In this document: piece after piece, positions 18,793-48,500 of the stretch
How the letters are laid out: the number at the start of each line of letters is the position of its first letter
Numbering within the stretch: the stretch's first letter is position 1
Assembly (NCBI GenBank): GCA_022821905.1
Contig: JAJECS010000030.1
Span: 8,586-72,585, forward strand
DNA: 64,000 nucleotides
Source: Chloroflexota bacterium
GTDB taxonomy: Bacteria > Chloroflexota > UBA11872
Direction of reading: 5' to 3'
Program-made: the position numbers and the translations under genes
Notes under the pieces: generated by a model
Told to the model about the DNA's origin: nothing
Seen by the model: the letters and a program-made list of their open reading frames with translations, nothing else
The model's database searches: none

Positions 18793-18868
18793 GGCGAGAT
18801 AGCTCAGTCGGTAGAGCAGTGGACTGAAAATCCATGTGTCGCCAGTTCGATTCTGGCTCTCGCCACCA
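18793..18868 (+). tRNA. tRNA-Phe (anticodon GAA), canonical copy with an encoded CCA
   Basis: GGCGAGATAGCTCAGTCGGTAGAGCAGTGGACTGAAAATCCATGTGTCGCCAGTTCGATTCTGGCTCTCGCCACCA closely matches bacterial tRNA-Phe. Confidence 0.9.
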
Positions 18869-19216: not shown

Positions 19217-20698
19217 GTGGTCATCGCCGCCCTGTACGTCCGCACACTCGACAACTACTTCCAATCCGACGACTTCGACTGGCTGTATACGTATGGCGCG
19301 CGTGCAGCGGCGGCAGGGACGGTGCAGGCGGTGCTGGCCCCGCCCGACCCGGCCTTGGTCGATCCGGCGGATCCCTTCACGTGGAATTACCGGCCCACTA
19401 CTGCCTTGCTCGTCAACGGGCTGTTCCGCCTGTTCGGGGTTGGTGCGCCGGCTGGGTATCACGCGATTCTGATTGCGGGACGCCTGGTGGCGTCGGCGCT
19501 GGCAGGCATGCTGGCGGGCCGCCTCACAGGCCGTGCCTGGATCGGCGCGGCTGTGGTGGCGGTGTTCGGGCTCCACTTCGCGCATGTCGAGACGGTGGCG
19601 TGGTTCGGCTCGATCGCTGAAGTCGTCGCCGGCGTGCTGGGGCTCGCGGCGGTGCTTGCGTTTCTGCACTACCGAGAATCAGGCCGTGCGCGCTGGGCGT
19701 GGACCGCAATTGTGATGTACGGCTTAGCGCTGGGCGCCAACCCCACGGCAGCGCCGATTATCGGAGTCTTTGTGCTGCTGGACCTTTGGCGGTCCGCTCG
19801 CGGAGCCGGACGCCGCTGGAATGCGCATTGGGTCTACTTGCCACTACTAGCGCTAGCGGGCGCGTACCTCGCCATAGAGGCGGCCGCTCTGAGTGTGGCG
19901 GCCGGGAGCGGCGGCTATGGGTATAGCCTCGGTTCGCATGTGCTGCTGAATGCGCTCTGGTACCCCGCAGTTCTTGTTGCCCCCTTCACTGAGCCAGAAC
20001 TGTTCGATGTGCACCGCGCACTGCTTGCCGCAGTCGATGGAAGCGGGTCACTCGCCGACCTCGCGGTGACAGCGAGATTTGCGCCGGTGCTTGTCGCACA
20101 CGTCGCAGTCATCGGCGCGGCTGGCTGGATTGCGGTTCGCGGTCCGGGATGGGCCCGCGTGGCTGTTGCCGCCGCGCTCTGCCTCGAAGCGCCCTTTGTC
20201 CTGCTCGGTGGAACGATGTTCCACTTTGCCTATCTGCCGGCAGCCTTTGTTCTGACCTTAGGCGTCGCCGCCCTGATGGTCAGTTCCCACGCGATGGCCA
20301 GGATGCTGCCGTGGTCCCGGGCGGTTGGTGCGGCGCCGGTGCTTGTTGCTGCAGGTCTCCTGGCCTGGCAGACGCATGGCCGCCTCGACGACTGGGAGTT
20401 TGCCGCCGGCCTCAGCCATCGACTGGTCCAGAGCGCTCACGCGGAGCTGGGCGACATACCCACGGGATCGACCGTAATTGCCGGGGGCCTGCCCAACACG
20501 GTCAACGGCGCCTATGTGTTTCGCGAAGGATTTCCGGCAGCGCTCAAAGTGACATACGGCCGCTCTGACTTTGAGGTTCAGACGTTTAGCCCGCCGGTCG
20601 TCATGCGCTTGATGTCGGAGTCGGACGCTAGCGACAGGCGTTATTTCCTGACCTATGAACCGTCAGCCATGGCCCTTCAGCGTGCAACCCACCGCTAG
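19217..20698 (+). CDS. Polytopic integral membrane protein, possibly a GT-C fold (ArnT/PMT/GT39-87-like) glycosyltransferase
   Basis: 493 aa with 10-12 predicted transmembrane helices and loop motifs such as HFAHVETVAWFG; GTG start; lies between two tRNA-Phe copies. Confidence 0.45.
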   Translation: MVIAALYVRTLDNYFQSDDFDWLYTYGARAAAAGTVQAVLAPPDPALVDPADPFTWNYRPTTALLVNGLFRLFGVGAPAGYHAILIAGRLVASALAGMLAGRLTGRAWIGAAVVAVFGLHFAHVETVAWFGSIAEVVAGVLGLAAVLAFLHYRESGRARWAWTAIVMYGLALGANPTAAPIIGVFVLLDLWRSARGAGRRWNAHWVYLPLLALAGAYLAIEAAALSVAAGSGGYGYSLGSHVLLNALWYPAVLVAPFTEPELFDVHRALLAAVDGSGSLADLAVTARFAPVLVAHVAVIGAAGWIAVRGPGWARVAVAAALCLEAPFVLLGGTMFHFAYLPAAFVLTLGVAALMVSSHAMARMLPWSRAVGAAPVLVAAGLLAWQTHGRLDDWEFAAGLSHRLVQSAHAELGDIPTGSTVIAGGLPNTVNGAYVFREGFPAALKVTYGRSDFEVQTFSPPVVMRLMSESDASDRRYFLTYEPSAMALQRATHR

Positions 20699-20883: not shown

Positions 20884-20956
20884 GGCGAGATTGCTCAGTC
20901 GGTCGAGCAGTGGACTGAAAATCCATGTGTCGCCAGTTCGATTCTGGCTCTCGCCA
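20884..20956 (+). tRNA. Second tRNA-Phe (GAA) copy with 2 substitutions (T9, C21) and no encoded CCA
   Basis: Identical to the 18793 copy except A9>T and A21>C; the 7 nt upstream (GCGCATG) are also shared; it may be a functional variant or a decaying duplicate. Confidence 0.7.
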
Positions 20957-21122
20957 CCTGGAACAACGCGTTTGCCCATCGCGCCCGGGGCGTGTGGGGA
21001 AGGGCCGCGCCACGTGGACGCATCGAAAGCCTGGATTCCGGCCGTCGGAGACCCCTGCAGAATCCAGCCGGGCTTGGGGATGACCGGGCGATTCCTGTCC
21101 GCCCCTAGGTTCAGTGAAGGGT

Positions 21123-21224: not shown

Positions 21225-21869
21225 TTAGCAGCCGCTGTAGATGGTCATGCTGGGGAGGCACCCGAAGTTGATCTGCACGGTCTGCACCGTGACCTCCTCC
21301 AGCGGCGCCGAGTCTCCACCAAGGGCGACGCCGCCAATCTTGTCCAGCGTCGTCTGCGACGGCGTGTGGTTCTCCTTGACGCGCGCGAAGATTGTGGCGT
21401 TCGCCGGCAATTCGTCTTCCGACACGTCGCTGAGCAGAATGTAGAACCGCGACCCATTGGAGTTCGGCGCGCCCGAGTTCGCCATCACCAAATCGCCGCG
21501 CCGGTAGGGCTGCTGCGGCGGCTCGATCTCGAACGTATAGCCGGGGTCACCGGTACCGGTGCCGGTGGGATCGCCGGTCTCGACGAGCACGCCGGGGACC
21601 ACGCGGTGCACCGTCATGCCGTCGTAATAGCCCTCCTGGGCCAGAAACAGGAAGCTGTTCACCGCCCGAGGCGCCTCCTGCGGCACGAGGTTGAAGGTCA
21701 TGCGCCCGAGGCTGGTGGTGAACACGGCGCTGTAGGGTCGAAGCTCCTCAACCGTCATCTCGGGCTCGGCCGCGAACGTCGGCGGACCCTCGGGTTCCGG
21801 CTCGCCACACGCGGCCACCGCAACCGCGGCGATCGCCACGACCAACGCAATCACGATTGCTCGCCACAT
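21225..21869 (-). CDS. Cyclophilin-type peptidyl-prolyl cis-trans isomerase, lipoprotein
   Basis: Cyclophilin core (FHRVVPGVLVETGDP...MANSGAPNSNGSRFYI) with a signal peptide and lipobox (AVAACGEP); a paralog (about 60% identity) of the tandem pair at 36126-37660. Confidence 0.8.
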   Translation of the reverse strand: MWRAIVIALVVAIAAVAVAACGEPEPEGPPTFAAEPEMTVEELRPYSAVFTTSLGRMTFNLVPQEAPRAVNSFLFLAQEGYYDGMTVHRVVPGVLVETGDPTGTGTGDPGYTFEIEPPQQPYRRGDLVMANSGAPNSNGSRFYILLSDVSEDELPANATIFARVKENHTPSQTTLDKIGGVALGGDSAPLEEVTVQTVQINFGCLPSMTIYSGC

Positions 21870-34232: not shown

Positions 34233-35156
34233 ATGTCCGCTCTCAGCGCAACATGGACCGGGTCCCTCGGCTACACGCGGCGGGGACTGCGCGTCCTGGG
34301 CGAGACTCCCTGGCTGTATGTCCAGATCCTGAGCGCCTTTGCGGCGCCGGCGGCGGTGGCTGCCTACGTGACCGCGTCGGATCTGCCGGAGGGCTTCGGT
34401 CGGTCGGCCTCGCTCTATGCGCTCAACGCCATCTCGGCGTCGGCCGCGCCGGTGGTGGTGATGACGGCTGTGGCCGCCGGCTATCACGGCGTCAACCTGG
34501 GCTTCGTCAACGCCATGCGGCAGGGCCTCTGGTGGCTGCTGCGCTATCTCTGGACCAACGTGCACACGACCGTGATTTTCTGGGCGCCGATTCTCGTCTT
34601 GTTGAATCTATTCGAGTGGCAGCGGAATGAGGCGCCGGTGGAAGGCGCGGCCGGACTGGCCGCCACCGCAGCCTGGGTGGTGCTGATCGGCGTCGTTGCC
34701 CTCTACATCCATTCGCGCACGCTGCTGGCACCGTTCTTCGCGGTGCACGGCAACATGCCCGCCACGCTTGCGACGATCGAGTCGTGGCGCATGAGCGGCC
34801 GCCGCTTTCCCATCGTGTTTGGCACCTTCATCGTGTCGTCGGCGCCCACGGCGGTGCCGCTGGCGATTGTGTTGACGACGCTGGCGTTCACGCTGAACGA
34901 AGCGGACGGGACCCGGGCGGTGTTCGCGGCCATGCTGCCCTCGCTGGTGTGGATGGCCATCAAGATCGTGCGGCCCTTCCTTATCACGGCGACCTACGGG
35001 CTCTATGTGGACCTCTGGACCGAGGAAGAGCAGCGGCGGGTGACACACGGAGCGCCGCCGGTGCCGCTGCTGGCACGGCCGTTGCTTGCGTTTTCGCGCT
35101 GGGTCCCGCGTTTGTTCGGCCGGGCCATCGGGCGGCGCATCGAGTGGACCGCGTGA
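34233..35156 (+). CDS. Hypothetical integral membrane protein (about 7 TM)
   Basis: Several hydrophobic segments and no recognisable motif; the stop overlaps the start of the next gene (GTGA). Confidence 0.5.
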   Translation: MSALSATWTGSLGYTRRGLRVLGETPWLYVQILSAFAAPAAVAAYVTASDLPEGFGRSASLYALNAISASAAPVVVMTAVAAGYHGVNLGFVNAMRQGLWWLLRYLWTNVHTTVIFWAPILVLLNLFEWQRNEAPVEGAAGLAATAAWVVLIGVVALYIHSRTLLAPFFAVHGNMPATLATIESWRMSGRRFPIVFGTFIVSSAPTAVPLAIVLTTLAFTLNEADGTRAVFAAMLPSLVWMAIKIVRPFLITATYGLYVDLWTEEEQRRVTHGAPPVPLLARPLLAFSRWVPRLFGRAIGRRIEWTA

Positions 35157-36064
35157 GCCAAGAAGCGACGCGGCTGCGGCTGGCGCTGTCCCTGGACTCC
35201 CGGCGACGCGTGCGCGGCGGCAGCTTCGAGGCCCTGGCCGACGCCATTCGACGCGGCGCCGACCTGCACATCGGTACCGAGTTTCGCCACAACGAGCACG
35301 TCGATACGTCGTCCGACAGCCCGGAGATCGTGCGTGAGCTGGCGGAGTTTCGGACGACCTATCTGATCGAGGATCGCTGGTCGGCGGGCATCATGACGCT
35401 CAGGCAGCCGGTGAGCCTGCCGGGCGCCTTTGGCCCGCGGCCGTCGATGTCGTTCTTCCTCTACAACCAGGACGGGACCCAGGCCATCGCGCGACCGCAC
35501 CTCGACGGGGCGTCAAGCGCCGACGCGACCGGCGCGGCGCCGATCGACAGCCATCCCGACATGCCCAAGTACCACCCGCTGGATAGCTGGGACGCCGAGA
35601 CCAACGCCCCGAGCAGCACCTTCATCTACGACTTCGAGCACTTCGACTTCCTCGTGCGAGACAACTGGACGGAGGTCCTGGCGCACGACGCCGGCGGCAC
35701 GGTGCTCCACGGATCCTCGGATGCGCTGGGCGATGTCTGCGGCGCCGGTGGCGAGGTGAAGGCAGCGGTGCGGGGTCTGTGTGCGGACCTTGCCGAGCCT
35801 GAAATGGACGCCATCGACCACGAAGTGTTCGTCCAGATCGGGTCGAGCTACTACTACACCGAGCAGCGGCTCTTCATCGGGGGCACGCACCCGCTGCCCA
35901 GAGTCCGGGCGTCTATGCCGCTGCGGTACGCGACCCGGGCCTGGGACTTTGGCTGGTTGATCTTGCGCACCGACGGCCGCGTGATCCGCCGCCTGTGCAA
36001 TCCGTACACGCTGCGCTTTCACGACAGCGAATCGCGCCACGCGATCCGCTGGTTCGTGCGGTGA
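35153..36064 (+). CDS. Hypothetical soluble protein translationally coupled to the upstream membrane protein
   Basis: The long ORF (34784-36064) overlaps the membrane-protein gene, so the start was set at the in-frame GTG (35153) overlapping the upstream stop; no recognisable domain. Confidence 0.45.
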   Translation: MSQEATRLRLALSLDSRRRVRGGSFEALADAIRRGADLHIGTEFRHNEHVDTSSDSPEIVRELAEFRTTYLIEDRWSAGIMTLRQPVSLPGAFGPRPSMSFFLYNQDGTQAIARPHLDGASSADATGAAPIDSHPDMPKYHPLDSWDAETNAPSSTFIYDFEHFDFLVRDNWTEVLAHDAGGTVLHGSSDALGDVCGAGGEVKAAVRGLCADLAEPEMDAIDHEVFVQIGSSYYYTEQRLFIGGTHPLPRVRASMPLRYATRAWDFGWLILRTDGRVIRRLCNPYTLRFHDSESRHAIRWFVR

Positions 36065-36075
36065 GCGAGGCGCGC

Positions 36076-36096
36076 GGGCGGGTTTGAAACCCGCCC
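36076..36096. terminator. GC-rich hairpin GGGCGGGT-TTGAA-ACCCGCCC between convergent genes; candidate bidirectional terminator; member of repeat family 2
   Basis: A perfect 8-bp G/C stem with a 5-nt loop; similar elements occur at 36925 and 56402, each followed by CCCTAC(C)CCGC. Confidence 0.45.
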
Positions 36097-36125
36097 CTAC
36101 CCCGCCTCCCTGAGCGCCTAGCGGC

Positions 36126-36803
36126 TCAGGGCCGGCAGTTGAATCCAGCGGCGGTTGAACCGTCGCCGGAGCAGTTGAGCGTCACGCCGGTCTTCATCTC
36201 CGAAATCGTGATCTCCTGCTGCGGCGCCGACGACTCGCCGTCCGCGGCCGTGCCAACGGGCACCGCTTCGATCTTGGCCAGGGTGTCGAACGATGCCTGA
36301 TGCCCTTCCTTGATCTGGCCAAAGAGCGTGAAGTCCGGCGACAGCCGGCCCTGCTCCGTCAGGTCATCCAGAATGATGAAGAACTGTGAGCCGTTGGAGT
36401 TGGGCACTCCCTTGTTGGCCATCGCCAGCCCGCCGCGGACATAGGGCCGCTGCGGCGGCTCGATCTCGAAGGTGTAGCCCGGGTTCCCCGTCCCCGTTCC
36501 GCTGGGATCGCCGCCCTGCACCATGAATCCCGGGATCAGCCGGTGGAAGGTCACCCCGTCGAAATAGCCCTCGTTGGCCAGGAAGAGAAAATTGTTCACC
36601 GCCAGCGGCGCCTCTTCCGAGAAGAGCGTGAAGGTCATGCGCCCCAGGCTGGTGGTGACGATCACCCACGGCTCACCGGCGGGAATGTCCATGGCCGGAT
36701 AGGCGGCGTAGGTCTTGGGTCCCTCGGGTTCCGCTTCGCCGCATCCCACGGCCACAACAACCACCAGCAACGCCACCAGTGTGAGTCGCAACATTTCACT
36801 CAC
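36126..36803 (-). CDS. Cyclophilin-type peptidyl-prolyl isomerase lipoprotein, tandem copy 1
   Basis: Cyclophilin core and lipobox (VAVGCGEAEPEGP); about 95% identical to the copy at 36977. Confidence 0.85.
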   Translation of the reverse strand: MSEMLRLTLVALLVVVVAVGCGEAEPEGPKTYAAYPAMDIPAGEPWVIVTTSLGRMTFTLFSEEAPLAVNNFLFLANEGYFDGVTFHRLIPGFMVQGGDPSGTGTGNPGYTFEIEPPQRPYVRGGLAMANKGVPNSNGSQFFIILDDLTEQGRLSPDFTLFGQIKEGHQASFDTLAKIEAVPVGTAADGESSAPQQEITISEMKTGVTLNCSGDGSTAAGFNCRP

Positions 36804-36924
36804 TCCTTCACCCGCATCCGTGCCGTGCCCATTGTTGCAATCCCATTGGCGCCCTGTCGCACGCGGATGACGCGTCGGACGGTCTGTGCCGCGTGCGGTT
36901 CGCGAACTGCCGTGTGAGTCGCGG

Positions 36925-36949
36925 AGGGGCGGGTTTTGGATCCGCCCCT
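36925..36949. terminator. GC-rich hairpin (AGGGGCGG...CCGCCCCT) downstream of cyclophilin copy 2; repeat family 2
   Basis: An 8-bp stem; the flanking CCCTACCCCGCTTCCCTGCGCGGCTAGCG parallels the 36076 element. Confidence 0.4.
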
Positions 36950-36976
36950 ACCCCGCTTCCCTGCGCGGCTAGCGCC

Positions 36977-37660
36977 CTATGGCTTGCAGGTGAACCCGAT
37001 GGCTCCCTCGCCGGAGCAGTTGAGCGTCACGCCGGTCTTCATCTCCGATATCGTGATCTCCTGCTGCGGCGCCGACGACTCCCCGTCCGCGGCCGTGCCG
37101 ACGGGCACCGCTTCGATCTTGGCCAGGGTGTTGAACGATGCCTGATGCCCTTCCTTGATCTGGCCGAAGAGCGTGAAGTCCGGCGACAGCCGGCCCTGCT
37201 CGGTGAGGTCGTCCAGAATGATGAAGAACTGCGAGCCGTTGGAGTTTGGCGTGCCCTTGTTGGCCATCGCCAGCCCGCCGCGGACGTAGGGCCGCTGCGG
37301 CGGCTCGATCTCGAAGGAGTAGCCCGGTCCACCGGTGCCGGTGCCGCTGGGATCGCCGCCCTGCACCATGAATCCCGGGATCAGCCGGTGGAAGGTCACC
37401 CCGTCGAAATAGCCCTCGTTGGCCAGGAAGAGGAAGTTGTTCACGGCCAGGGGCGCCTCCTCCGAGAAGAGGGTGAAGGTCATGCGCCCCAGGCTGGTGG
37501 TGACGATCACCCATGGCTCGCCGGCGGGAATGTCCATGGCCGGATAGGCCGTGTAGGTCTTGGGGCCCTCGGGCTCGGCTTCGCCGCATCCCACGGCCAC
37601 AACGACCAGCAGCAACGCCACCAGGGCGAGTCGCAACATTTCCCACGCTCCTTTGACCAC
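36977..37660 (-). CDS. Cyclophilin-type peptidyl-prolyl isomerase lipoprotein, tandem copy 2
   Basis: As for copy 1; 227 aa. Confidence 0.85.
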   Translation of the reverse strand: MVKGAWEMLRLALVALLLVVVAVGCGEAEPEGPKTYTAYPAMDIPAGEPWVIVTTSLGRMTFTLFSEEAPLAVNNFLFLANEGYFDGVTFHRLIPGFMVQGGDPSGTGTGGPGYSFEIEPPQRPYVRGGLAMANKGTPNSNGSQFFIILDDLTEQGRLSPDFTLFGQIKEGHQASFNTLAKIEAVPVGTAADGESSAPQQEITISEMKTGVTLNCSGEGAIGFTCKP

Positions 37661-37775
37661 CGCCGCGCCGGCTGCATTGTCCCAATCACCGCCTCAGGTT
37701 GTCGCGCGGCGCCGGTGGGATTGCCGTCCTAAACTGGGCCTACGACGAGGGCAAACACCGACAGAAGGACGCGCC

Positions 37776-38207
37776 ATGACCCACCGTCTCTATCGGAGCC
37801 AGGCTGATCGGATGCTCACCGGCGTCGCCGGCGGCATGGCGGAATACCTGCGCATCGATCCGGTAATCGTCCGCCTGCTGTGGGTGCTGGCCGTCGTGCT
37901 CTCGAGCGGTCTGGGTCTGCTGGTCTATCTGGCGTTGGCCGTGATCACGCCGTCACTACCCCGGCAGGAGTCTGATGCGGACAGCGCTTCCGACGACGCC
38001 GAGGGCGGCGCCCCAGCCGATGCCCCATCCGCGCCGGCGGACTATGCGCCGGGCCGCAACGGCGCCGCGGTCGTCATCGGCTCTGCCCTAATCGTGATCG
38101 GCGCCGTGGCCCTGGCGAGCCAGTTTGGGTGGTTCGACGCCTGGCGGCTCTGGCCGCTCGCGTTGATCGCGATCGGCGGGGTGTTGATTCTCAACCAGCG
38201 GCGCTAG
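37776..38207 (+). CDS. PspC-domain membrane protein (phage-shock protein C family)
   Basis: MTHRLYRSQADRMLTGVAGGMAEYLRIDPVIVRLLWV is the PspC-domain signature, followed by a TM helix and an acidic tail; the start at 37776 is preferred over the ORF-track start at 37560. Confidence 0.8.
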   Translation: MTHRLYRSQADRMLTGVAGGMAEYLRIDPVIVRLLWVLAVVLSSGLGLLVYLALAVITPSLPRQESDADSASDDAEGGAPADAPSAPADYAPGRNGAAVVIGSALIVIGAVALASQFGWFDAWRLWPLALIAIGGVLILNQRR

Positions 38208-38213
38208 GCCATC

Positions 38214-39116
38214 GTGGATCAGCGGGGGTTTGGCTTCGGCGGAGCGCTGATCCTGGTCGGGATCGTTGCCCTGCTCTGGAACTTCGACGTGCTTCCCGAC
38301 CGGTTCTGGCCCGCGGCGTGGTCGTTGTGGCCGGTTGCGCTGGTGGCTGTCGGCGCCGGCCTGGCGCTCTCGCGGGTGCGCGCCTGGCTGGGATCGACGG
38401 CGTTTCTGGTCGTCCTGGTCGCCGGATTTGGCGCGGCGTGGGGGCTGGCGGCAACCGACCAAGGGTCGGCACTTCACCGCAAAACGATCGCCGTGAACCT
38501 GGGCGAAGCCACGGAGGCGCGCCTGGAGCTGCACGTGGGGGCGGGCTCGCTCACCCTCGACGCGGATGCGCCGCGCGATCTGCTGCTTTCGGGCGAACTG
38601 GAATCGCGCACGGTCGGCGACGCCTATTCGATCAGCACATCACACAATGCCGGCGGCCGAAGCGTAATCAGGCTCAGAAATGCGCCCGACTGGGAATTCT
38701 CGTTTTGGCCAGGCCAGGGCCCGTCCGAGGACTGGACGCTGCATCTCACGCCGGACATTCCCACCGAGATCCGCGTAGAGGCCGGCGCCGCGGACATCGA
38801 CCTGGATCTGCGCGACCTCAGCCTCCGAAGCCTCAAGATCGAGGCCGGCGCCGCCGACGTGAACGTCACGATGCCCGCCGCCGGCGGAAAAACGGAAGCC
38901 AGCATTGAGGTGGGCGCCGCGAGCCTGCGGATCACCGTTCCCGATGGAGTAGCCGCACGGATCGAAGTCGATGCCGGGCTCTCCAGCGTGCAAATCAATG
39001 AGGACCGATTTCCGCAAGCGTCCGACGACGTTTACATTTCGCCAGGATTCGATCGCGCCGCCAACCGCATTGACATCTCCATCGACGCCGGCGCCAGCCA
39101 CGTCGAGATTCGCTGA
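38214..39116 (+). CDS. LiaF-like / DUF4097 putative cell-wall-active-antibiotic response membrane protein
   Basis: N-terminal TM helices plus a C-terminal beta-rich repetitive domain (EAGAADIDL..., EVGAASLRI...) as in LiaF/DUF4097 proteins; adjacent to the PspC-domain gene. Confidence 0.55.
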   Translation: MDQRGFGFGGALILVGIVALLWNFDVLPDRFWPAAWSLWPVALVAVGAGLALSRVRAWLGSTAFLVVLVAGFGAAWGLAATDQGSALHRKTIAVNLGEATEARLELHVGAGSLTLDADAPRDLLLSGELESRTVGDAYSISTSHNAGGRSVIRLRNAPDWEFSFWPGQGPSEDWTLHLTPDIPTEIRVEAGAADIDLDLRDLSLRSLKIEAGAADVNVTMPAAGGKTEASIEVGAASLRITVPDGVAARIEVDAGLSSVQINEDRFPQASDDVYISPGFDRAANRIDISIDAGASHVEIR

Positions 39117-39129
39117 GGGAGCACCCGCC

Positions 39130-39843
39130 GTGACGAACTTGCCCGACTCGGACATCAAAGAGCTGTTGTCTGCCACGTCCACGCCCACACTCACGCACCT
39201 CTTGCAGCTGCGCGGATATCGCAACGTCTACTTCTGCGGGCTGACCCCGGTCGGTCCGGCCGTGCGGGCGGTGGGACGGGCGCGCACGCTGCGCTACACG
39301 CCGCACCGGCCCGACCTCTATCCGGACGACCTATCGCGCAATCCGCAGCGCCTGGCGATCGAATCGATCGAGCCCGGCGAAGTGCTGGTGGCGGAGGCCG
39401 GTGGCCATCTGGGGGCGGGGGTACTGGGCGACATCCTCCTCACGCGAGTGGCCAAGCGAGGCGGCGCGGCGTTCGTGGTCGATGGAGCGGTACGCGACCC
39501 CGACGCCATCGGGGAGCTTGAGATGCCGGTGTTCGTGCGGGGCATTCACGGTGCGGCGCACATGCGCGACCTGGTGCCCATCGGACACGACGTGCCGGTT
39601 CGCTGCGCCGGGTGCACGGTTGTCCCGGGCGACTGGATCGTGTGCGATGCGAACGGCGCGGCCGTGGTGCCGCCAGACGTTGCCGCCGAAGTCGCCGCCG
39701 AGGGTGCGGAGATGGACCTCAAGGAGGAGTACGTCCTCGAACTGATCGACGGGGGCGCCTCCACCGTCGACGTCTATCCGCCCACCGACGACAACATGCA
39801 GGGCTTCCCCGCGTGGAAGGCGGCGCGGGGCGACAAGTCGTAG
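39130..39843 (+). CDS. RraA-family protein (4-hydroxy-4-methyl-2-oxoglutarate aldolase / oxaloacetate decarboxylase or RNase E regulator-like)
   Basis: RraA/MenG-like fold motifs (VLVAEAGGHLGAGVLGDILLTRVAKRGGAAFVVDGAVRD); the GTG at 39130 follows a GAGGGAG ribosome-binding site. Confidence 0.65.
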   Translation: MTNLPDSDIKELLSATSTPTLTHLLQLRGYRNVYFCGLTPVGPAVRAVGRARTLRYTPHRPDLYPDDLSRNPQRLAIESIEPGEVLVAEAGGHLGAGVLGDILLTRVAKRGGAAFVVDGAVRDPDAIGELEMPVFVRGIHGAAHMRDLVPIGHDVPVRCAGCTVVPGDWIVCDANGAAVVPPDVAAEVAAEGAEMDLKEEYVLELIDGGASTVDVYPPTDDNMQGFPAWKAARGDKS

Positions 39844-39909
39844 CGCGCGCCGCGCAGTGATACTCGCGGTCGCAGGCGGCGACGGCATCAGGCAGTTGGA
39901 CCCCGACGC

Positions 39910-40347
39910 ATGACGCAGCAGTCGATCGTGGGCGTGTGGCGGCTCGTGTCGTACGAGTCGCGACCGGAATCGGGAGCGACTCGGCTGCCCTATGGCCAGC
40001 GGGTCAGTGGATACCTGATCTATACCCCGCAGGGCTACATGTCGGTGACGATCATGGGCGCCAATCGGCCAAACCTCGCCTCCGAGGACCGTCTCTCCGG
40101 CACGCCCGACGAGTACGCGCGGGCCATGAAGACGTACGTCTCCTACTGCGGTCGCTACACCGTGGAATCCGACCGCGTCGTCCATCACATCGAGCTCAGC
40201 CACTTTCCGAACTGGTGTGGCAGGGACCAGGTGCGTTTCTACCAACTCGAGGGTGATTGCCTGCGGCTGCGAACGCCGCCGTTCGTGCTCGGCGGCGTCC
40301 AGCAGACCGCGCATCTCGTCTTGGAGCGCGTGCAGGTCGGCGAGTAG
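39910..40347 (+). CDS. Bacterial lipocalin-like domain protein
   Basis: An N-terminal GVWRLVSYE motif and size (145 aa) typical of the Lipocalin_5-like family. Confidence 0.5.
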   Translation: MTQQSIVGVWRLVSYESRPESGATRLPYGQRVSGYLIYTPQGYMSVTIMGANRPNLASEDRLSGTPDEYARAMKTYVSYCGRYTVESDRVVHHIELSHFPNWCGRDQVRFYQLEGDCLRLRTPPFVLGGVQQTAHLVLERVQVGE

Positions 40348-40421
40348 CGCCGCCCGAGCGACGCTCGCGACGGGCGGCCAACTCGGGCGGGCGCGTACGA
40401 TGCGTTGCGGCTTGAGTCAGG

Positions 40422-41585
40422 GTGTCCTCGATGAGCTATCCACGAGCCTTTTCCAAGGCTGAATTCGAGCGCCGCGCCTCCGCGGTTACCGCGCGCATGC
40501 GCGATGCGGGATTGGACGCGCTCATTGCGTACTCGGTTCGCAACAGCCAGGGGCCCGTGGCCTATCTCGGCGGCTACGAGCCCGACCTCGGCCTGCACGA
40601 CGTTTCGTATTTCCTATTGATCCCGGGAGGAACGCCCGAGGCCATCCTGGTGACCAATGGTTTCTGGGACGATCCGGCCTCGCGCACGTGGGTCGATGAC
40701 GTCGTGATCTCCTACAAGTTCGAGTCGAGCCTGCCGGAGCTGCTGCCGAGCACGGCAGCGCGGATCGGAGTGGCGGGCTTCGATTACCTGCCGGCTCCGG
40801 TCTATCTGGGCCTACAGTCGGCGCTGCCCCGCTGCGAGATCGTGGACGCCACGCGGCTGGTGATGGAAGTGGCGCAGATCAAGAGTCCGGCCGAGATCGA
40901 GGTCATTCGCACCGGCATGTCGATCAACGATTGCGGCGGACGGGCGTTCCTGGCGAACGTCCACGAGGGCGCAAACGAGCGGTTGCTGCAAGTCGCCGTC
41001 GAACAGGCGCTCATGCAGGCGGGAGCGGACGGCCTCTACTACAACCCGCAGATCTACAGCGGGGCGAGCGTCGCGCACGGCATGGGCATGCGAACGGACC
41101 GCGTCCTCCGGGCGGGCGACCAGGTCCAGGTGGACTGTGGGGCGATGTATCGCGGCTATCGCGGCGACCTCTCGCGGGTGACCACCGTCGGCCGTGGGTC
41201 ACCGAAGGTCAGGCACATCATGGAGGCCACGGCGCTCATGTACGAAGACATGGTGGACGCCCTGCGTCCGGGGACGGCCGCGGCCGACGTGGCCCGCGCC
41301 GGGATTCGCGTGGCCGAAGCGAACGGACTCGGCGACGGGCTGTATCGCCCGACGCCGGACCATCCGCCCGGCATGCTCGGCCACGGCATCGGCTGCTGGA
41401 TCCATGAGTTGCCGGACATTCAACTCGATTCAACCGACGTGATTGAGCCCGGCATGGTGGTGGTGCTCGAGACCATCCTGGGGCAACCGGGGACCGGCGG
41501 GGCGAAGATCGAAGACGCGGTGCTGGTGACCGACGGCGCGCCCGAACGGCTCTCCAGCCTCCCGGTGCGCACGTGGCCGTTGTGA
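40422..41585 (+). CDS. M24-family metallopeptidase (Xaa-Pro aminopeptidase/creatinase-like)
   Basis: A creatinase/prolidase N-terminal domain and a pita-bread catalytic domain with conserved D/H/E metal ligands (DCGAMYRGYRGDLSR, HGIGCWIHE). Confidence 0.75.
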   Translation: MSSMSYPRAFSKAEFERRASAVTARMRDAGLDALIAYSVRNSQGPVAYLGGYEPDLGLHDVSYFLLIPGGTPEAILVTNGFWDDPASRTWVDDVVISYKFESSLPELLPSTAARIGVAGFDYLPAPVYLGLQSALPRCEIVDATRLVMEVAQIKSPAEIEVIRTGMSINDCGGRAFLANVHEGANERLLQVAVEQALMQAGADGLYYNPQIYSGASVAHGMGMRTDRVLRAGDQVQVDCGAMYRGYRGDLSRVTTVGRGSPKVRHIMEATALMYEDMVDALRPGTAAADVARAGIRVAEANGLGDGLYRPTPDHPPGMLGHGIGCWIHELPDIQLDSTDVIEPGMVVVLETILGQPGTGGAKIEDAVLVTDGAPERLSSLPVRTWPL

Positions 41586-41636
41586 AATCGGTGGTAGCGT
41601 ACGCGTCGGCCACCCGCGCCGTTTGAAGGTCTCCGC

Positions 41637-43289
41637 ATGACAACCACCGACGCCATTGCACACATCCTGCAGGCCGAGGGCATCGAGTTCCTCAGCGTGT
41701 ACCCGACCACACCCATCATCGAATCGGTGGCGGAGATCGGCATCCGTCCCGTCCTCTGCCGCCAGGAGCGGGTGGGCGTGGACATTGCGGACGGATTCTC
41801 CCGCGTCACCAACGGCAATCCGCCCGGCGTGTTCGCCATGCAATATGGTCCGGGCGCCGAGAATGCGTTTTCCGGAATCGCCACCGCGTTTACGGATGGA
41901 GCGCCGCTGCTCGTCCTGCCGCTGGGACAGCCGGGAGACCGCGATGGCGTGGACCCGCTGTTCAGCTCGATGCGGTCATACGCCTCGGTCACGCGGTCCA
42001 TCCAGCGCATCAACAGCCCCGCGGAGGTCGCGGACCGGATGCGCCGCGCCTTTGCCGCGCTTCGCGCGGGACCCGGCGGACCGGTCATGGTCGAGATTCC
42101 GGCCGACGTGGCCGAGGCCGAGGTCGACGAGGCCGTTCCCGCAGGCTATCGGCCCGTGCGCCCAGTTCTTTCGGCCGCGAACCCCGACGATGTCCGCAGT
42201 GCGGCGCAGACCCTGCTCGACGCCCGGCATCCGGTGCTGCTCGCCGGGCAGGGGGTGCTCTATGCGGGCGCAAGCCGCGAGCTGATCGAGCTGGCGGAGC
42301 TGCTCGGCGTGCCCGTGGCGACGACCATGGCCGGCAAGAGCGCGTTTCCCGAAAAGCACCCGCTGGCCCTGGGAAGCGTTTCCAGCGTATCGAGCGAGCC
42401 CGCACGGCACTTCGTCGAGCAGGCCGACCTCATTTGCGGGATTGGCACCAGCTTTACCAGGCACATCATGAGCATGCCGATCCCCGCCGGGAAGACGATC
42501 GTTCAGCTCACCGGCAACCCGCGCGACATCGCCAAGGACTACGACATCGACGTGGCGGCGGTCGGCGACGCAAAGCTCGTGCTTCGCCAACTCATCGAAG
42601 CCTGCCGCGACCTCACAGGCGGCCAGCCGACCGGAGCCAATGGCGCGCCGGGCGGCGAGATCGAGGCCATTCGTCGCGAGTGGCTGGCCGACTGGATGCC
42701 CAAGCTGGCTTCAGACGCCAAGCCGATCAATCCTTACCGAGTGATCTGGGAATTCATGCAGCGGGTCGATCCCTCCGAAGCCATCGTGACCCACGATTCG
42801 GGCAGCCCGCGCGATCAGATCATGCCGTTCTACCAGGCCGGCGGGCCGCGCACGTATCTCGGCTGGGGCAGGTCGCACGCGCTGGGGACAGGCCTGGGCT
42901 TGAGCATTGGCGCGAAGCTCGCGGCCCCGGACAAGTTCGTCGTCAACTACATGGGTGACGCGGCGTTTGGGATGACCGGGCTCGACATCGAGACGGCCGT
43001 GCGCTGCAAGATTCCGATTCTGACGATCGTGCTCAACAACTCGTCGATGGCCATCGAGGCCCGCCACTTGCCGCGGTCGCACGCCAAATACCGCACGCGA
43101 GACATCGGCGGGGAATACGCGGAGATGGCGGCAGCCATGGGGGCGTGGACCGAGCGCGTGGACGAGCCCGACGACGTCGGCCCGGCCCTCGAGCGGGCCA
43201 GACGCGCCACGGAGGACGGCCGCACGGCGCTGCTGGAATTCATCACCAGCGAGGAGATCACGTTCTCGAACAAGAACGCGATTAGCTAG
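41637..43289 (+). CDS. Thiamine-diphosphate-dependent enzyme of the acetolactate synthase/benzoylformate decarboxylase family
   Basis: Three-domain TPP-enzyme architecture and the TPP-binding motif GDAAFGMTGLDIETAVRCKIPILTIVLNN. Confidence 0.75.
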   Translation: MTTTDAIAHILQAEGIEFLSVYPTTPIIESVAEIGIRPVLCRQERVGVDIADGFSRVTNGNPPGVFAMQYGPGAENAFSGIATAFTDGAPLLVLPLGQPGDRDGVDPLFSSMRSYASVTRSIQRINSPAEVADRMRRAFAALRAGPGGPVMVEIPADVAEAEVDEAVPAGYRPVRPVLSAANPDDVRSAAQTLLDARHPVLLAGQGVLYAGASRELIELAELLGVPVATTMAGKSAFPEKHPLALGSVSSVSSEPARHFVEQADLICGIGTSFTRHIMSMPIPAGKTIVQLTGNPRDIAKDYDIDVAAVGDAKLVLRQLIEACRDLTGGQPTGANGAPGGEIEAIRREWLADWMPKLASDAKPINPYRVIWEFMQRVDPSEAIVTHDSGSPRDQIMPFYQAGGPRTYLGWGRSHALGTGLGLSIGAKLAAPDKFVVNYMGDAAFGMTGLDIETAVRCKIPILTIVLNNSSMAIEARHLPRSHAKYRTRDIGGEYAEMAAAMGAWTERVDEPDDVGPALERARRATEDGRTALLEFITSEEITFSNKNAIS

Positions 43290-43303
43290 GCGACCCTGGC
43301 AAT

Positions 43304-44116
43304 CTAGTCGCCGGGCTCGATGTCCACGACCAGCAGCGATTCCTCGTTTCCGGCGTTCGCCGCCAGCAACTCGCCGCCCGGGGCGAAGACGGCGGCCCGG
43401 CCGGTCACGCGGTGGGGCCACCCGGGACGCTCATCGAAGTCGCCGCGCGGGTCCTTGGCGTCGAGGTAGAGCGCAAACACGCCCAGCCGTTCGGCCAGGT
43501 CCTCGGCGCGGCGCTTGAGCGTGTCGCGCTGGTTGAAGTCCAAGATTTCGGCCCATGAGTCCCCGGCATCCTGGAAGTCCTTGATGCAGTCGAAGTGCGG
43601 CTCGACGATGAGGCGAGCGCCGAGACCCACGAGGGTGTCGTGGATTGCGGGCGACTCGTTGTCGGCGCAGATGGTCACGCCGATCGTGAGGCGGCCAAGC
43701 CGAAACGGCGTCATGTCGTCGCCGCCGCCCCGGTAGAAGTCCATCTCGCTGGTGGTCGGCTGCAGCTTGCGCTGGACGTGCCGCACACCGTCGCCGTCAA
43801 CAATGACGTACGCATTGAACGGCTTGGGCGCGAGGCCGCGTTCGGCAATGCCGGCGCCGATGGCCAGTCCAAACTGCGCGGCCATGCGCGTCAGCCGCTC
43901 GGTCGAGGGACCGGGAATCGGCTCGGCTCGCGTCTCCAGTTCGACAGGGTCGGCGTCGGCGTCGTAGGTCACCCAGGGACCGTGCACGGAGAACTCGGGG
44001 AAGAGCACCAGGTCGCATCCCGCGGCGGCCGCCTGCTCGGCGAACGCCTCGATCCTCTCCAGGTTCGCATCCCGCTGCCCCCGCAGGGAGCACAGGGTGA
44101 CCATGCCAATTCGCAT
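43304..44116 (-). CDS. Carbon-nitrogen hydrolase (nitrilase superfamily) protein
   Basis: The catalytic-triad context EFSVHGPW (Glu), a conserved Lys region and Cys in TICADNESP. Confidence 0.75.
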   Translation of the reverse strand: MRIGMVTLCSLRGQRDANLERIEAFAEQAAAAGCDLVLFPEFSVHGPWVTYDADADPVELETRAEPIPGPSTERLTRMAAQFGLAIGAGIAERGLAPKPFNAYVIVDGDGVRHVQRKLQPTTSEMDFYRGGGDDMTPFRLGRLTIGVTICADNESPAIHDTLVGLGARLIVEPHFDCIKDFQDAGDSWAEILDFNQRDTLKRRAEDLAERLGVFALYLDAKDPRGDFDERPGWPHRVTGRAAVFAPGGELLAANAGNEESLLVVDIEPGD

Positions 44117-44566
44117 CGACGCCTCAGTCGCGGCTCTTCCGAAACCCACCAAGCCTCACACAGGCCGAGATGCCGCGCGTTGCGGGAACTCCGCCGAGCG
44201 CTTCGCCACGCACCACTCCCGGTGGGGGTTTGAGACGCGCGGCCGTGTGCGGGCTGCGACTCGAGGGGCGCGGCGCGTCGTCCATGGTTTTCCGCGCGAC
44301 AGTGGCTATGCTTACAGTCAAATCGGCCGATGTGCGGCGACCCTGAGGCTGGGTGGGCACGGCTGGGCCCCATTCCACCCGCGCGAGCGGTGCCGGATGG
44401 GCTCCGGGGCAGATCATCAGATCGATCCGGCGGCTTCGAGACGACGAATGGTCCACGCGGCGAAGCGCGGACCCGCAACCAGCCGGGAATATCCCGCCGC
44501 ACGTCACGTAGAGGTTTCTTGGCCGGGGCGAACGGCCCCTGCCGTTTCATGGACGGAGCATGTCCT

Positions 44567-45205
44567 ATGGCCCGCCTGGCGATATTCATCGATGGCGCAT
44601 ACCTGGAGTCGGTGCTCAAGTACGAGTTCGGCGGCGTCCGCATCGATTTGACGAAGCTGGTCGACGAGATCCAGGACCACGTCGAGGAGAACAGTCCTGA
44701 GCCCATTGAAGTCCTGCGGACGTACTACTACAACTGCCGGCCCTACCAAAGCGACCCCCCGACGCCGGAGGAGATGGACCGATACTCGAACTCGCGGCGC
44801 TTCGAGGACGCGCTGCGGTATCTGCCCCGCTTCGAGGTGCGGCTGGGGTATCTCCGCAAGAGCGGCATCGACGAGTGGGGCAATCCGGTCTTCGAGCAGA
44901 AGCAAGTCGATCTGCTGCTCGGCCTCGACATGGCGCTGCTCGCCAGCAAGAAGCAGGTGCAGCACGTGGCGCTGGTGGCGGGCGACGGGGATCTCTACCC
45001 GGCGGTGCAGGTCCTCAAGAGCGAGGGTTCGGTCGCCTGGTTGATCCACGGGCCGCGGCAGGGCAGTGACGGACGCCCGATGTACTCGTCCAATCTCTTC
45101 AAGGCCGCCGACGAGCGATTTGAGCTGGATGAAGAGCTGATCGACCGCCTGCGAATGTCTGCCCCGCGATTGGCCGGTGGCGCTGCGCCGGAGACGCTTG
45201 GGTAA
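44567..45205 (+). CDS. NYN-domain (LabA/PIN-like) protein
   Basis: MARLAIFIDGAYL and ...VALVAGDGDLYPAVQ are NYN/LabA hallmarks; an alternative in-frame ATG lies at 44549. Confidence 0.7.
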   Translation: MARLAIFIDGAYLESVLKYEFGGVRIDLTKLVDEIQDHVEENSPEPIEVLRTYYYNCRPYQSDPPTPEEMDRYSNSRRFEDALRYLPRFEVRLGYLRKSGIDEWGNPVFEQKQVDLLLGLDMALLASKKQVQHVALVAGDGDLYPAVQVLKSEGSVAWLIHGPRQGSDGRPMYSSNLFKAADERFELDEELIDRLRMSAPRLAGGAAPETLG

Positions 45206-45266
45206 CTCGGTCGTCCCATCGACGGGCAAGGCGAAGCTGGCGTAGGGGTCGAAATCGAAAAGGCTG

Positions 45267-45290
45267 GGATTCCCACGCTCGCGGGAATGG
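45267..45290. repeat. Variant copy of the dispersed GGATTCCC...GCGGGAATG repeat
   Basis: GGGATTCCCACGCTCGCGGGAATGG in the NYN-RCC1 intergenic region. Confidence 0.6.
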
Positions 45291-45370
45291 AGCGGGCTCA
45301 GACGAGACTACGAGTGACCGGTCCGACGCTGCCTGCAACCCGGGCCAGCAGGCAACCCTAGATTGTTGTC

Positions 45371-45393
45371 GGGGCAGCCATTGTGGCTGCCCT
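45371..45393. terminator. Perfect 9-bp hairpin GGGCAGCCA-TTG-TGGCTGCCC downstream of the NYN gene
   Basis: Seen directly in the sequence; no U-tract, which is common in high-GC taxa. Confidence 0.3.
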
Positions 45394-45591
45394 GGTTGAT
45401 CCCGACGGGCGCCTCCGCGCGGACATACCGGCGCGAATCTGGTGTGACCTGAGTGGGGTATAGGAACGGCGGAGCCCACGCTGCACGCAGCGCGGGCCGC
45501 CGAGCACGAGAAAATTGCAAGATCTTGGGAACGATTGGCCCGCGGGCCGCGTACTGTCTCCAAAGGGACCGCTGCGTCTGGAGCCCGTTGC

Positions 45592-48500
45592 ATGCCTGGG
45601 CGACCATTGACCGACGAGCCACGTCGCCGGCGGCTGCAAGCCATTCGCGTGGTCACGGCTGCGTTGGCCCTGGCGCTGATCATCGCCGCGCCGCCAGCCG
45701 CCGAGGCCGAGGACCCGCCCGCGACGACCGGGCCGCGGTTCGTCGCCGTCGGCAGCGGGGAGTACCACTCGTGTGCGCTGCGAGCCGACGGCGAAGCCGT
45801 GTGCTGGGGCGCTCAACCCGTTGATCCCGACGCCGAACTCGATCCGGTTGACTTCGGCCAGGCCTCGCCACCAACCGGCGAACGGTTCACGGCCATCAGC
45901 AGCGGCGGCTGGCACACCTGCGGCCTGCGTGAAGACGGTTCCGCCGTGTGCTGGGGCCGCGATGAACACGGGCAGGCCTCACCGCCGATAGACGAGCGGT
46001 TCTCGGCCATCAGCAGCGGCGGCCGTCACACGTGTGCCCTGCGCGAAGACGGAACCGCGGTGTGCTGGGGGAACAATCAGGAAGGCCAGGCTTCGCCGCC
46101 TGAGGGCGAACGCCTAGCCACGGTCAGCAGCGGCGGCTACCACACCTGCGGGTTGCGCGAGGACGGACAGGCCGTGTGTTGGGGGCCGGAGCCTGGGTCG
46201 GACGGCCACACCGGATGGTCGGCGCCGCCCGACGAGCCGCTGGTCGCACTGTCCAGCACCTGGGGCAGGTCATGCGGCCTGACGGCTGATGGCGGGGCGG
46301 TCTGCTGGGGCGCATGGTCGGACGTGGTCTATGAAGGCACGTCGCCGCCCAGCGATCAGTTTGTCACCTTGACCGTGGACGCTGAGGGCGGCTGCGGTCT
46401 CTGGACCAATCGCACGGCGGTGTGCTGGGGCTTCGGCTACTTCTATCCCACGCCCGAACGTGTGCGCTTTGCGGCGATCAGTCGCGCCAACAACCACATT
46501 TGCGCGATCCGAGAGGCTGACGGCGGGTTGGTGTGCTGGGGCGACAACGACTATGGGCAAGCGACGCCTCCAGACGGCGAGCGATTCGTCAAGGCCGAGC
46601 CCCGCGTCAAGCCGCCCAAGCCCGTGGTGCCCTTTGTTGCCGTCAGCAGTGGCTCGAACCATGCGTGCGGCCTCACCGGCAGTGGCAGCGTCTGGTGCTG
46701 GGGCGACGATGAGTACGGAAAGGCGTCACCGCCCGAAGGCGAGACATTCGCGGCCATCGCCAGTGGATCGGATCACACCTGCGGGATCCGCCTGGACGGC
46801 ACACTGGTCTGTTGGGGAAGAGATCACCGGGCCCAGGCATCGCCGCCGGAAGGTGGCGGATTCGCCGCCGTCACCAGCGGGCTGAGCCACTCCTGCGCAT
46901 TGCGCGAGGACGGCACGGCCGTCTGCTGGGGCGGCTTCGTTGACGATGAGAGCCTGGAAACGCTGAGCGAGCAGCAACTCAGCGCCATCAGCAGCGGGGC
47001 GTTTGGGTTCTGCGCGCTGCGAACCGACGGCAGCCTGATTTGCTCCCAATCCGTCGGCGCGCCGCCGGAGGGCGAGACGTTTGCGGCAATCAGCGTGGGG
47101 TGGGACCACGCCTGCGGGCTGCGCGAGGACGGCTCGCCGGTCTGCTGGGGGGAGCGCTTTTCCTGGACGTCGCGCGGCCAGGCCTCGCCGCCGGAGGGTG
47201 AGCGGTTCGTGGCCATCAGCAGCGGGTTCGACCACACCTGCGCCGTGCGGGCGGACGGCACCCCTGTGTGCTGGGGCGGCGAGGATCCCCAATCCGATCG
47301 CGGCCAGGCCTCACCGCCGCCAATCGAACGGCTAGTCGCCGTCAGCAGCGGATCCGGATTCACCTGCGGCCTGCGCAGGGACGGCACGGAGGTCTGCTGG
47401 CGCTTCACACCCTCGGGCGTGGCTATCGACTCCGAAGCCATTCGCGCCCACTACCGATACAGGAGCGCGCGGCCGTCGCTTGTCAGCGGCGGCGACTGGC
47501 ACTCCTGCGGCGTCCTGGAGGCGGGCGGCTTCGCGTGCGTCCATACCAATCCTGGGAGCGACATACCGCTAGGCATCAGCAGCCGCGGATTCGAGGAGGT
47601 CAGCAACCGTGTCTTCACGTCGATGAGCACCGGCAATCGATTCACCTGCGCGCTCGATCCGGACGGCGCACCGGTGTGCTGGGGCATCGACGACTACGGC
47701 CAGGCGTCGCCGCCCGCCGATGAGCGATTCACCGCCCTCAGCAGTGGGGAACGGCATGTCTGTGCGCTTCGCGGGGACGGCACGCCGGTGTGCTGGGGCG
47801 ACCCGGCGCAAGGCCGCACCACGCCGCCCGCAGGGGAATCGCTCACCACCATCAGCAGTGGCTGGGCCCACACCTGTGCGCTCCGTGCGGACGGCACGCC
47901 CATCTGCTGGGGCCGCGACTACTACGGCCAGGCATCGCCGCCCGACGGTGAGCAGCTCGTCACCATCAGCAGCGGGCACGCGCACACGTGCGGCTTGAGA
48001 GCAGATGGCGCACCGGTCTGCTGGGGACGGAACGACAGCGAGCAGGCATCACCGCCTGCGGGTGCGCAGTTCGTATCGATCAGCAGTGGCCCGGCCCACA
48101 CCTGCGCCCTTCACGCCGACGGCAGCCCGTTCTGTTGGGGCGATGAAGATAGCGAGGTTCTGAGAGCGCCGAGCGTCGACCAGTACAGCTCGGTTTACAG
48201 TGGCGAGGTGCACGCCTGCGGACTGCGGGCGGACGGGACTCTTGTCTGCTGGGGCGACAGCTACTCGGCCGCCCCGAAGGGCGAGGCACTCGCGACGGTG
48301 AGCCTCGGGCTGGCGCACAGCTGCGGCCTACGCCAGGACGGCCGCCCTGTCTGTTGGGGCGATGGCTACGAGACGCCGGTTGTCTCGGCCCGCCAGTCGA
48401 TCTACCAGATCATCAGTGCGCAGAGTGTCCGCGCCATCGCCAGCGGCTATGACCATGCGTGTGTGCTGCGCCAGGACGGCACCCCGGTGTGCTGGTCGCT

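Follow-up and report, generated by a model that had tools for sequence, protein, structure and literature searches.

The 64,000-nucleotide (nt) stretch of Chloroflexota DNA analysed here (called the window below; all coordinates refer to it unless another contig is named) carries two head-to-tail units on its minus strand between 36060 and 37700, with a period of 845–851 nt and a cyclophilin gene in each. These genes, cypU (upstream) and cypD (downstream), are very probably an ancient, fixed tandem pair encoding exported, lipid-anchored cyclophilins whose cores have been converted and whose C-terminal tails have been kept apart. Taken by itself, the locus would pass for an ordinary young duplicate; the comparisons give instead a clear case, in bacteria, of partial concerted evolution, in which the core is homogenised and a tail of 12–16 codons is kept different under purifying selection. 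The pair also carries a caution: paralogs that are highly identical within one genome need not be recent. The first-pass annotation of this DNA had described ~850-bp tandem cyclophilin units, which the measured period and the single PF00160 open reading frame (ORF) in each unit bear out, and a very recent duplication, which the comparisons below refute. The units were compared by repeat finding and pairwise alignment; Tandem Repeats Finder made no call at the locus, where the period is above that program's 500-nt limit. The two genes and their tail-coding ends are as follows.

36126–36794, minus strand: cypD, the downstream copy, encoding a 222-amino-acid lipoprotein cyclophilin with tail ...NCSGDGSTAAGFNCRP; ORF whose ATG has GGAG 8 nt upstream; PF00160 E 7e-38; same protein called on ENA contig L001

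36977–37639, minus strand: cypU, the upstream copy, encoding a 220-amino-acid lipoprotein cyclophilin with tail ...NCSGEGAIGFTCKP; ORF whose ATG has GGAG upstream; PF00160 E 1e-37; 220-amino-acid gene called on L001

36126–36176, minus strand: cypD tail-coding end, C-x11-C loop and stop; position-specific and not homogenised (tail alignment across genomes, site patterns)

36977–37021, minus strand: cypU tail-coding end, C-x9-C loop and stop; position-specific and not homogenised (tail alignment, site patterns)

The ATGs preceded by GGAG are the most plausible starts of both genes, and the ends of cypD and cypU agree with those of genes called publicly on another, independent contig.

When one genome per species was scanned, close relatives turned up only in metagenome-assembled genomes labelled Chloroflexota. 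The pair is present in nine other species-representative genomes (L002 to L010), with two or more copies in each. At the locus their DNA matches the window at 94% (L002), 83–85% (L003–L008) and ~80% (L009 and L010) identity. Synonymous divergence (dS) of the flanking genes from those of the window is mostly 0.06–0.17 in L002 (0.33 for the LiaF-like gene), mostly 0.35–0.55 in L003–L008 (range 0.23–1.04), and mostly 0.5–0.7 in L009 and L010 (up to 0.95). All nine genomes have one and the same gene order: one strand carries genes for an M24 peptidase and for lipocalin-like, RraA-like, LiaF-like and PspC proteins, cypU and cypD diverge from this pspC-side group, and ORFs for 297 and 307 amino acids converge on the pair.

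The two copies are told apart in these genomes by their tails, extensions of 14–16 residues after the last barrel strand, each with a pair of cysteines that are spaced C-x9-C in CypU and C-x11-C in CypD. The pspC-proximal copy ends ...CSGEGAIGFTCKP, aligned as ...NCSGEG--AIGFTCKP, in the window and in every intact copy of L002–L007; in L008 the frameshifted pspC-proximal copy still ends ...NCSGEGAIGFTCRP, L010 has the related GEGATGFTCRP, and L009 is without such a copy. The other copy ends ...NCSGDGSTAAGF(N/T)CRP (CSGDGSTAAGF(N/T)CRP), with a related STASGF form in L009 and L010. Since position-specific tails are common to these lineages, a single duplication that predates all of them is the only economical reading. 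The tails are invariant within each ortholog group, and the amino acids of the U tail are identical in seven genomes whose synonymous sites vary; fixed amino acids over variable synonymous sites show that each tail is under purifying selection.

Two irregularities were seen among the relatives. In L008 (CBDAOU010000001.1, 4961–5624) the pspC-proximal copy is split into two overlapping frames near 5440, which could reflect either a pseudogene or a sequencing error. L009 (5283–5927) and L010 (5286–5927) have an extra tandem copy whose tail lacks cysteines (...TTGAKKGVPSLHAI); L010 thus has three tandem copies, and L009 is without the GEG-type copy.

The core of the genes (nt 4–630) has a different history. 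In a neighbour-joining tree with 200 bootstraps the core sequences group by genome or lineage and not by position: L005_U with L005_D (200/200), L006_U with L006_D (178/200), and L010_U, L010_D and L009_D together (200/200), whereas the window and L002 orthologs pair with each other (196/200 and 199/200). Site patterns were counted over every pair of genomes; a site was called concerted when a state is in both copies of one genome and absent from both copies of the other, and the control counts homoplasy.

Core, all sites: concerted 779, orthologous 115, control 72

Core, third positions: concerted 451, orthologous 86, control 67

Last 42 nt (tail): concerted 16, orthologous 141, control 10

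By distinct columns the core has 121 concerted against 35 control sites (binomial p 3e-12). The U–D dS within a genome is 0.28 in L005 and 0.17 in L006, and ortholog dS is 0.33–0.57 and 0.26–0.44, respectively; paralogs are closer to one another than to orthologs in L005, L006 and the L009/L010 lineage, and not in the window compared with L002. Across 15 D-type and 24 U-type database proteins, not one of the seven amino-acid differences between the window's cores goes with tail type. The pattern is one of partial, episodic concerted evolution, in which recurrent gene conversion homogenises the core and stops short of the tail.

A number of observations weigh against this account or limit it. 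The window and L002 U and D sequences are grouped together at only 108/200 bootstraps, core sites in the window and L002 are orthologous in 22 cases and concerted in two, and neither the window nor the window plus L002 has a private change common to both copies. Escape of the tail from conversion could be a neutral edge effect (the end of the homologous block plus an indel) and so is not proof of specialisation, although such an effect would not explain why the tails are conserved. On the protein side, the tail was modelled by AlphaFold2 with a predicted local distance difference test (pLDDT) score of only ~57, human cyclophilin A (hCypA) positions W121 and H126 are Q and F in both CypU and CypD, and the signal peptide and lipoprotein status of both copies is a pattern match only. 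A consensus scan of the region found no useful sigma-70 promoter and no canonical intrinsic terminator.

The timing in the window lineage follows from the same comparison. Twenty-two core and seven tail sites that separate the window's copies also separate those of L002, so the last homogenisation preceded the window–L002 split; judged by dS, it may be roughly as old as the L003–L008 radiation. There is no sign of conversion in the window lineage since that split. The first-pass annotation had offered dosage selection or ongoing gene conversion as the cause of the amplification; the core tree and concerted sites support conversion within the clade, "ongoing" is unclaimable for this genome, and dosage selection on the pair would be compatible with these results.

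Could the copies of an old duplication have been kept alike by strong purifying selection and codon bias, with no conversion at all? The dN/dS ratio of ~0.13 and the 90–97% protein conservation between species are what such a history would give. Selection, however, cannot create genome-specific changes in both copies, and L005 has five private changes that are present in both; concerted sites outnumber the homoplasy control 779:72 overall and 451:67 at third positions, and U–D dS in L005 and L006 lies below their ortholog dS. We therefore consider this explanation very unlikely. Less probable still is that independent tandem duplications in each lineage gave rise to look-alike pairs without gene conversion, an alternative that has been raised for tandem duplicates (PMC6053082) and that would also place paralogs by genome in the core tree. 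The GEG--AIGF tail, with the same two-codon indel, lies next to pspC wherever the U-type copy is intact, the other copy is always GDGSTAAGF, and the 3′ flanks partly follow position; independent events would not recreate tails and an indel that are tied to position in this way.

A very recent tandem duplication, shortly before sampling and with copies that have barely diverged, would agree with the adjacency and common orientation of the genes and with the 94% identity of their products (11 substitutions plus a two-residue indel; the first-pass count of about 10 differences in 225 residues was close). The similarity of the units is far beyond chance, and it falls short of the 95–97% DNA identity that had been claimed: alignment gave 92.4% for the coding sequences, 91% (68 mismatches and small gaps) for the alignable unit (36067–36842 against 36916–37687), and 95% only in the best gap-free 300-nt block. 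The 3′ flanks are 74% identical, the 48 nt that precede the ATGs ~73% (counted from the alignment), and ~73 nt of each ~849-nt period have no pairwise alignment. Between the coding sequences, with ~50 nucleotide differences, dS is 0.25 and dN 0.032; dS is thus not near zero, nor is the second copy absent from close relatives, since all nine related genomes have at least two copies, with the same tails and flanks. As 29 of the differences between the copies are common to L002 as well, a very recent origin is barely credible. The longest identical stretch between the window's copies is 89 nt (36499–36587); it was considered as a recent conversion tract and set aside, since its length stands out only slightly, on a rough reckoning, and the stretch sits in the most conserved, active-site region.

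An assembly artefact, with a single gene broken into two or a larger number of copies merged into two, was named at first pass as what would overturn the finding, and its probability is close to nil: the source is a metagenome assembly and repeats are prone to misassembly, but the copies differ every ~14 nt, so that short reads can separate cypU from cypD, the independent ENA metagenome contig KELL22-1 scaffold_1371 equals window positions 35611–46794 over 11,184 bp with 0 mismatches (and encodes CypD residue for residue), and contigs of 1.2, 3.2, 3.3 and 3.4 Mb from relatives, two of them titled chromosomes, carry two copies (three in L010).

An old tandem pair with episodic conversion of its core thus remains the preferred account, and the steps we propose are these. 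The duplication is older than the split among at least ten species-level lineages. In the time since, homologous recombination has again and again replaced the ~630-nt core of one copy by that of the other, which is why the cores, 92% identical, seem young. The final ~40 nt, which encode the two-cysteine loop, have escaped conversion and been held constant in each copy by purifying selection. The outcome would be two enzymes with the same catalytic body and, likely, different C-terminal disulfide loops, both of them probably foldases for secreted and membrane proteins, with the loop perhaps setting partner or client preference.

That both proteins are cyclophilins is well supported. They match PF00160 with 130.8 and 129.9 bits (cutoff 21.7) over profile positions 2–158 of 159, the AlphaFold2 model is a cyclophilin barrel with a mean pLDDT of 78.8 (mostly 85–97 in the core), and the top Foldseek matches in the PDB are all cyclophilins (probability 1.00, template modelling score up to 0.83 on target). 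Nine of 12 hCypA pocket positions are identical in both copies (R55, F60, M61, Q63, A101, N102, Q111, F113 and L122), and A103 is K in both. The N-terminus, MLRL(T/A)LVALL(V/L)VVVAVGC, fits the type II signal peptide pattern of a basic n-region, a hydrophobic core and a lipobox [LVI][ASTVI][GAS]C:

36741–36794, minus strand: putative cypD signal peptide and lipobox (MLRLTLVALLVVVVAVGC, Cys18), by sequence pattern

37586–37639, minus strand: putative cypU signal peptide and lipobox (MLRLALVALLLVVVAVGC, Cys18), by sequence pattern

A lipobox-like motif lies within the first 50 residues in 108 of the best 120 database homologs (P0001–P0120). The lipobox-bearing cyclophilin peptidyl-prolyl isomerase (PPIase) assigned at first pass thus agrees with both the domain matches and the ..VVAVGC motif at Cys18. 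The proteins are predicted to be held by a lipid anchor at the outer surface of the cytoplasmic membrane, and CypU and CypD would both be active, extracytoplasmic, membrane-tethered PPIases.

The last 32 residues of the same 120 homologs contain two cysteines in 101 cases, none in 19 and one in 0; the spacing between the cysteines is 6–15 residues, and there are 40 distinct tails. This paired pattern matches what is predicted for a disulfide-closed C-terminal loop and suggests that such a loop is a family trait. The structural model suggests that the tail forms a small β-hairpin (residues 207–209 and 219–221, at the pLDDT of ~57 given above). The tail is the obvious candidate for what distinguishes the two enzymes, and we hypothesise that it sets partner or client specificity; if so, it would offer a handle on how extracytoplasmic PPIases choose clients and partners.

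The nearest solved sequence is Streptococcus pneumoniae SlrA (7L6Z, E 1.3e-26), which is fourth by fold. SlrA has a signal peptide and a lipid-modified cysteine, and the original work named it a lipoprotein rotamase (PMC11853100). The SlrA/PpiA proteins of streptococci and lactococci (PDB 7L6Z and 7L6Y; PMC11853100, PMC3307742) resemble the window pair in having an exported PPIase domain and an N-terminal lipobox cysteine, and the presumed role, extracytoplasmic foldase, is the same. On the other hand, identity is only ~33–35%; SlrA has an N-terminal domain of ~60 residues and loop insertions (the 7L6Z alignment is gapped at the SlrA insertion), whereas the window proteins have a short linker of ~25 mature residues; the C-terminal two-cysteine loop is absent from SlrA; and SlrA is single-copy, against at least seven paralogs per genome in the window's clade. 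Because they lack the SlrA domain and insertions and have the added cysteine loop, the window proteins appear to be SlrA-like in function and not SlrA orthologs. The best NCBIfam match is Escherichia coli PpiA (NF008151, E 1e-20), likewise an exported bacterial cyclophilin, but at 74 bits the match falls far short of the equivalog cutoff, 308, and PpiA is soluble and periplasmic, is not a lipoprotein, and lacks a cysteine-loop tail.

As an evolutionary case the pair is most like tufA/tufB and mtrA (PMC6053082), where the duplication is also older than speciation, paralogs group by genome through recurrent gene conversion, and the flanks and context are position-specific; it differs from the genes of that study in being tandem, in its partial and episodic homogenisation, and in having a short coding tail that stays distinct and conserved. 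Cyclophilin is not among the 26 genes with long-lasting concerted evolution reported there (PMC6053082). The AquaCyps of marine Alphaproteobacteria (PMC4898713) are, as described, likewise lineage-restricted cyclophilin variants with additions; compared by that description only, theirs are large extensions and insertions, whereas the window pair adds a C-terminal loop of 14–16 residues.

CypU and CypD are not the only lipoprotein cyclophilins in these genomes. A third, more divergent one had been noted in the window, and it is confirmed, with 52–56% protein identity to the pair:

21225–21869, minus strand: third lipoprotein cyclophilin paralog, 214 amino acids, tail ...GCLPSMTIYSGC, with the variant active-site segment HRVVPGVLVETGD (sequence and profile comparison)

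It retains only R55, A101, N102 and L122 of the 12 hCypA positions. The same genomes have a single-copy type that ends ...DDGCSA(S/T)WSAC (L011–L014) and arrays of four or five tandem lipoprotein cyclophilins that end ...EGCLPS......C (L015–L020; for example, L018 5977–9701), whose tails, in an order largely conserved across species, include CLPSWGGYGPC, CLPSRGNYGAC, CLPSGGPFQCS, CLPSGGPYQCS and CLPAWMGFGRC. In the array genes and in the window's third paralog, HRVVPGVLAE(T/S)GD replaces HRLIPGFMVQGGD (F60V, M61L and Q63E in hCypA numbering). At least seven lipoprotein cyclophilin paralogs are present in the 3.38-Mb chromosome OZ244789, and there are ~10 conserved loop types per genome. The pair belongs to an unusual, clade-specific expansion with at least seven such genes per genome, against one to three in well-studied bacteria; each has its own two-cysteine loop, and the expansion includes a subclass with a changed active site. 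It is conceivable, though we put it forward only tentatively, that they form a "barcoded" set of at least seven to nine surface cyclophilins, with interchangeable bodies (those of cypU and cypD being homogenised), loops that serve as address or client tags, and a variant subclass in which isomerase chemistry is altered or lost. A literature search found no tail-coded foldase family and no relevant paper on cyclophilin expansion in sponge or Chloroflexi symbionts.

The noncoding parts of the two units were compared in an alignment of the upstream regions from ten genomes and by folding of the 3′ regions.

36795–36870, minus strand: cypD upstream region with Shine-Dalgarno sequence and conserved motif, putatively promoter-like (ten-genome alignment)

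37640–37712, minus strand: cypU upstream region, which also has the conserved motif and lies within the 136 nt between cypU and divergent pspC (same alignment)

36076–36096, minus strand: G+C-rich, terminator-like hairpin 3′ of cypD, no U tract (−39.6 kcal/mol for the 66-nt 3′ region, z −3.0)

36927–36947, minus strand: G+C-rich hairpin 3′ of cypU, between both genes, no U tract (−35.6 kcal/mol, z −2.6)

In the ~75 nt before each ATG, GCG(C/T)GCGACA is followed after ~18 nt by TTGC(G/A)ACAATG, and both elements are kept before both copies in all ten genomes. Stable hairpins lie 3′ of both stop codons, as had been claimed for each unit. Given the motif conserved before both copies and the hairpin between the genes, each gene probably has its own promoter and terminator and would be transcribed independently. 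Elsewhere in the window the upstream decamer occurs no more often than expected (three matches against 4.4), which gives no evidence of a regulon, and an Rfam search at E up to 1 gave a single sub-threshold chance match.

Beyond cypU lie two genes that had been noted as an adjacent envelope-stress pair, and the adjacency is real: cypU is divergent from pspC, which is followed by the LiaF-like gene, and the arrangement is kept in nine relatives.

37776–38207, plus strand: PspC-domain membrane protein, divergent from cypU (PF04024 E 1e-20, PF18917; TIGR02978 match below cutoff; synteny in nine genomes)

38214–39116, plus strand: LiaF-like membrane protein with LiaF-TM and Toast_rack_N domains (domain matches, conserved synteny)

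In all closer relatives the cypU–pspC intergenic region keeps an A+T-richer motif, AGTTTAGGAC or AGTTTAGAAC (about 37735–37745 in the window); read in reverse complement it includes TAAACT, and it may be a −10 element for pspC. The cyclophilin pair might belong to an envelope-stress module of the Psp/Lia type and be regulated together with pspC and the liaF-like gene: the divergent arrangement, with its 136-nt shared intergenic region, is kept in nine relatives, and the products of all these genes are envelope proteins. The adjacency is, however, confined to the clade, as tblastn (E 1e-3) at 70 more distant cyclophilin loci found no PspC/LiaF-like neighbour. Genes for a histidine kinase, a response regulator or PspA are absent from the surroundings, and the upstream motif is not found elsewhere in the window. 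Synteny in one clade is weak evidence of co-regulation. We consider membership in such a module unlikely, and a shared envelope-stress role is possible but unsupported.

On the other side of the pair, genes for a 307-amino-acid membrane protein (34233–35156) and a 297-amino-acid protein (35171–36064) converge on cypD. Neither has a Pfam or NCBIfam match, and both are kept in all nine relatives (84–96% and 84–93% protein identity, respectively).

Farther away in the window, two tRNA-Phe(GAA) genes (18793–18868 and 20884–20958) lie 2.1 kb apart and flank the ORF of a 493-amino-acid multi-pass membrane protein (19217–20698). They have two differences within the tRNA and are similar for 13 nt upstream, and the second of them is ~270 nt from the third cyclophilin gene.

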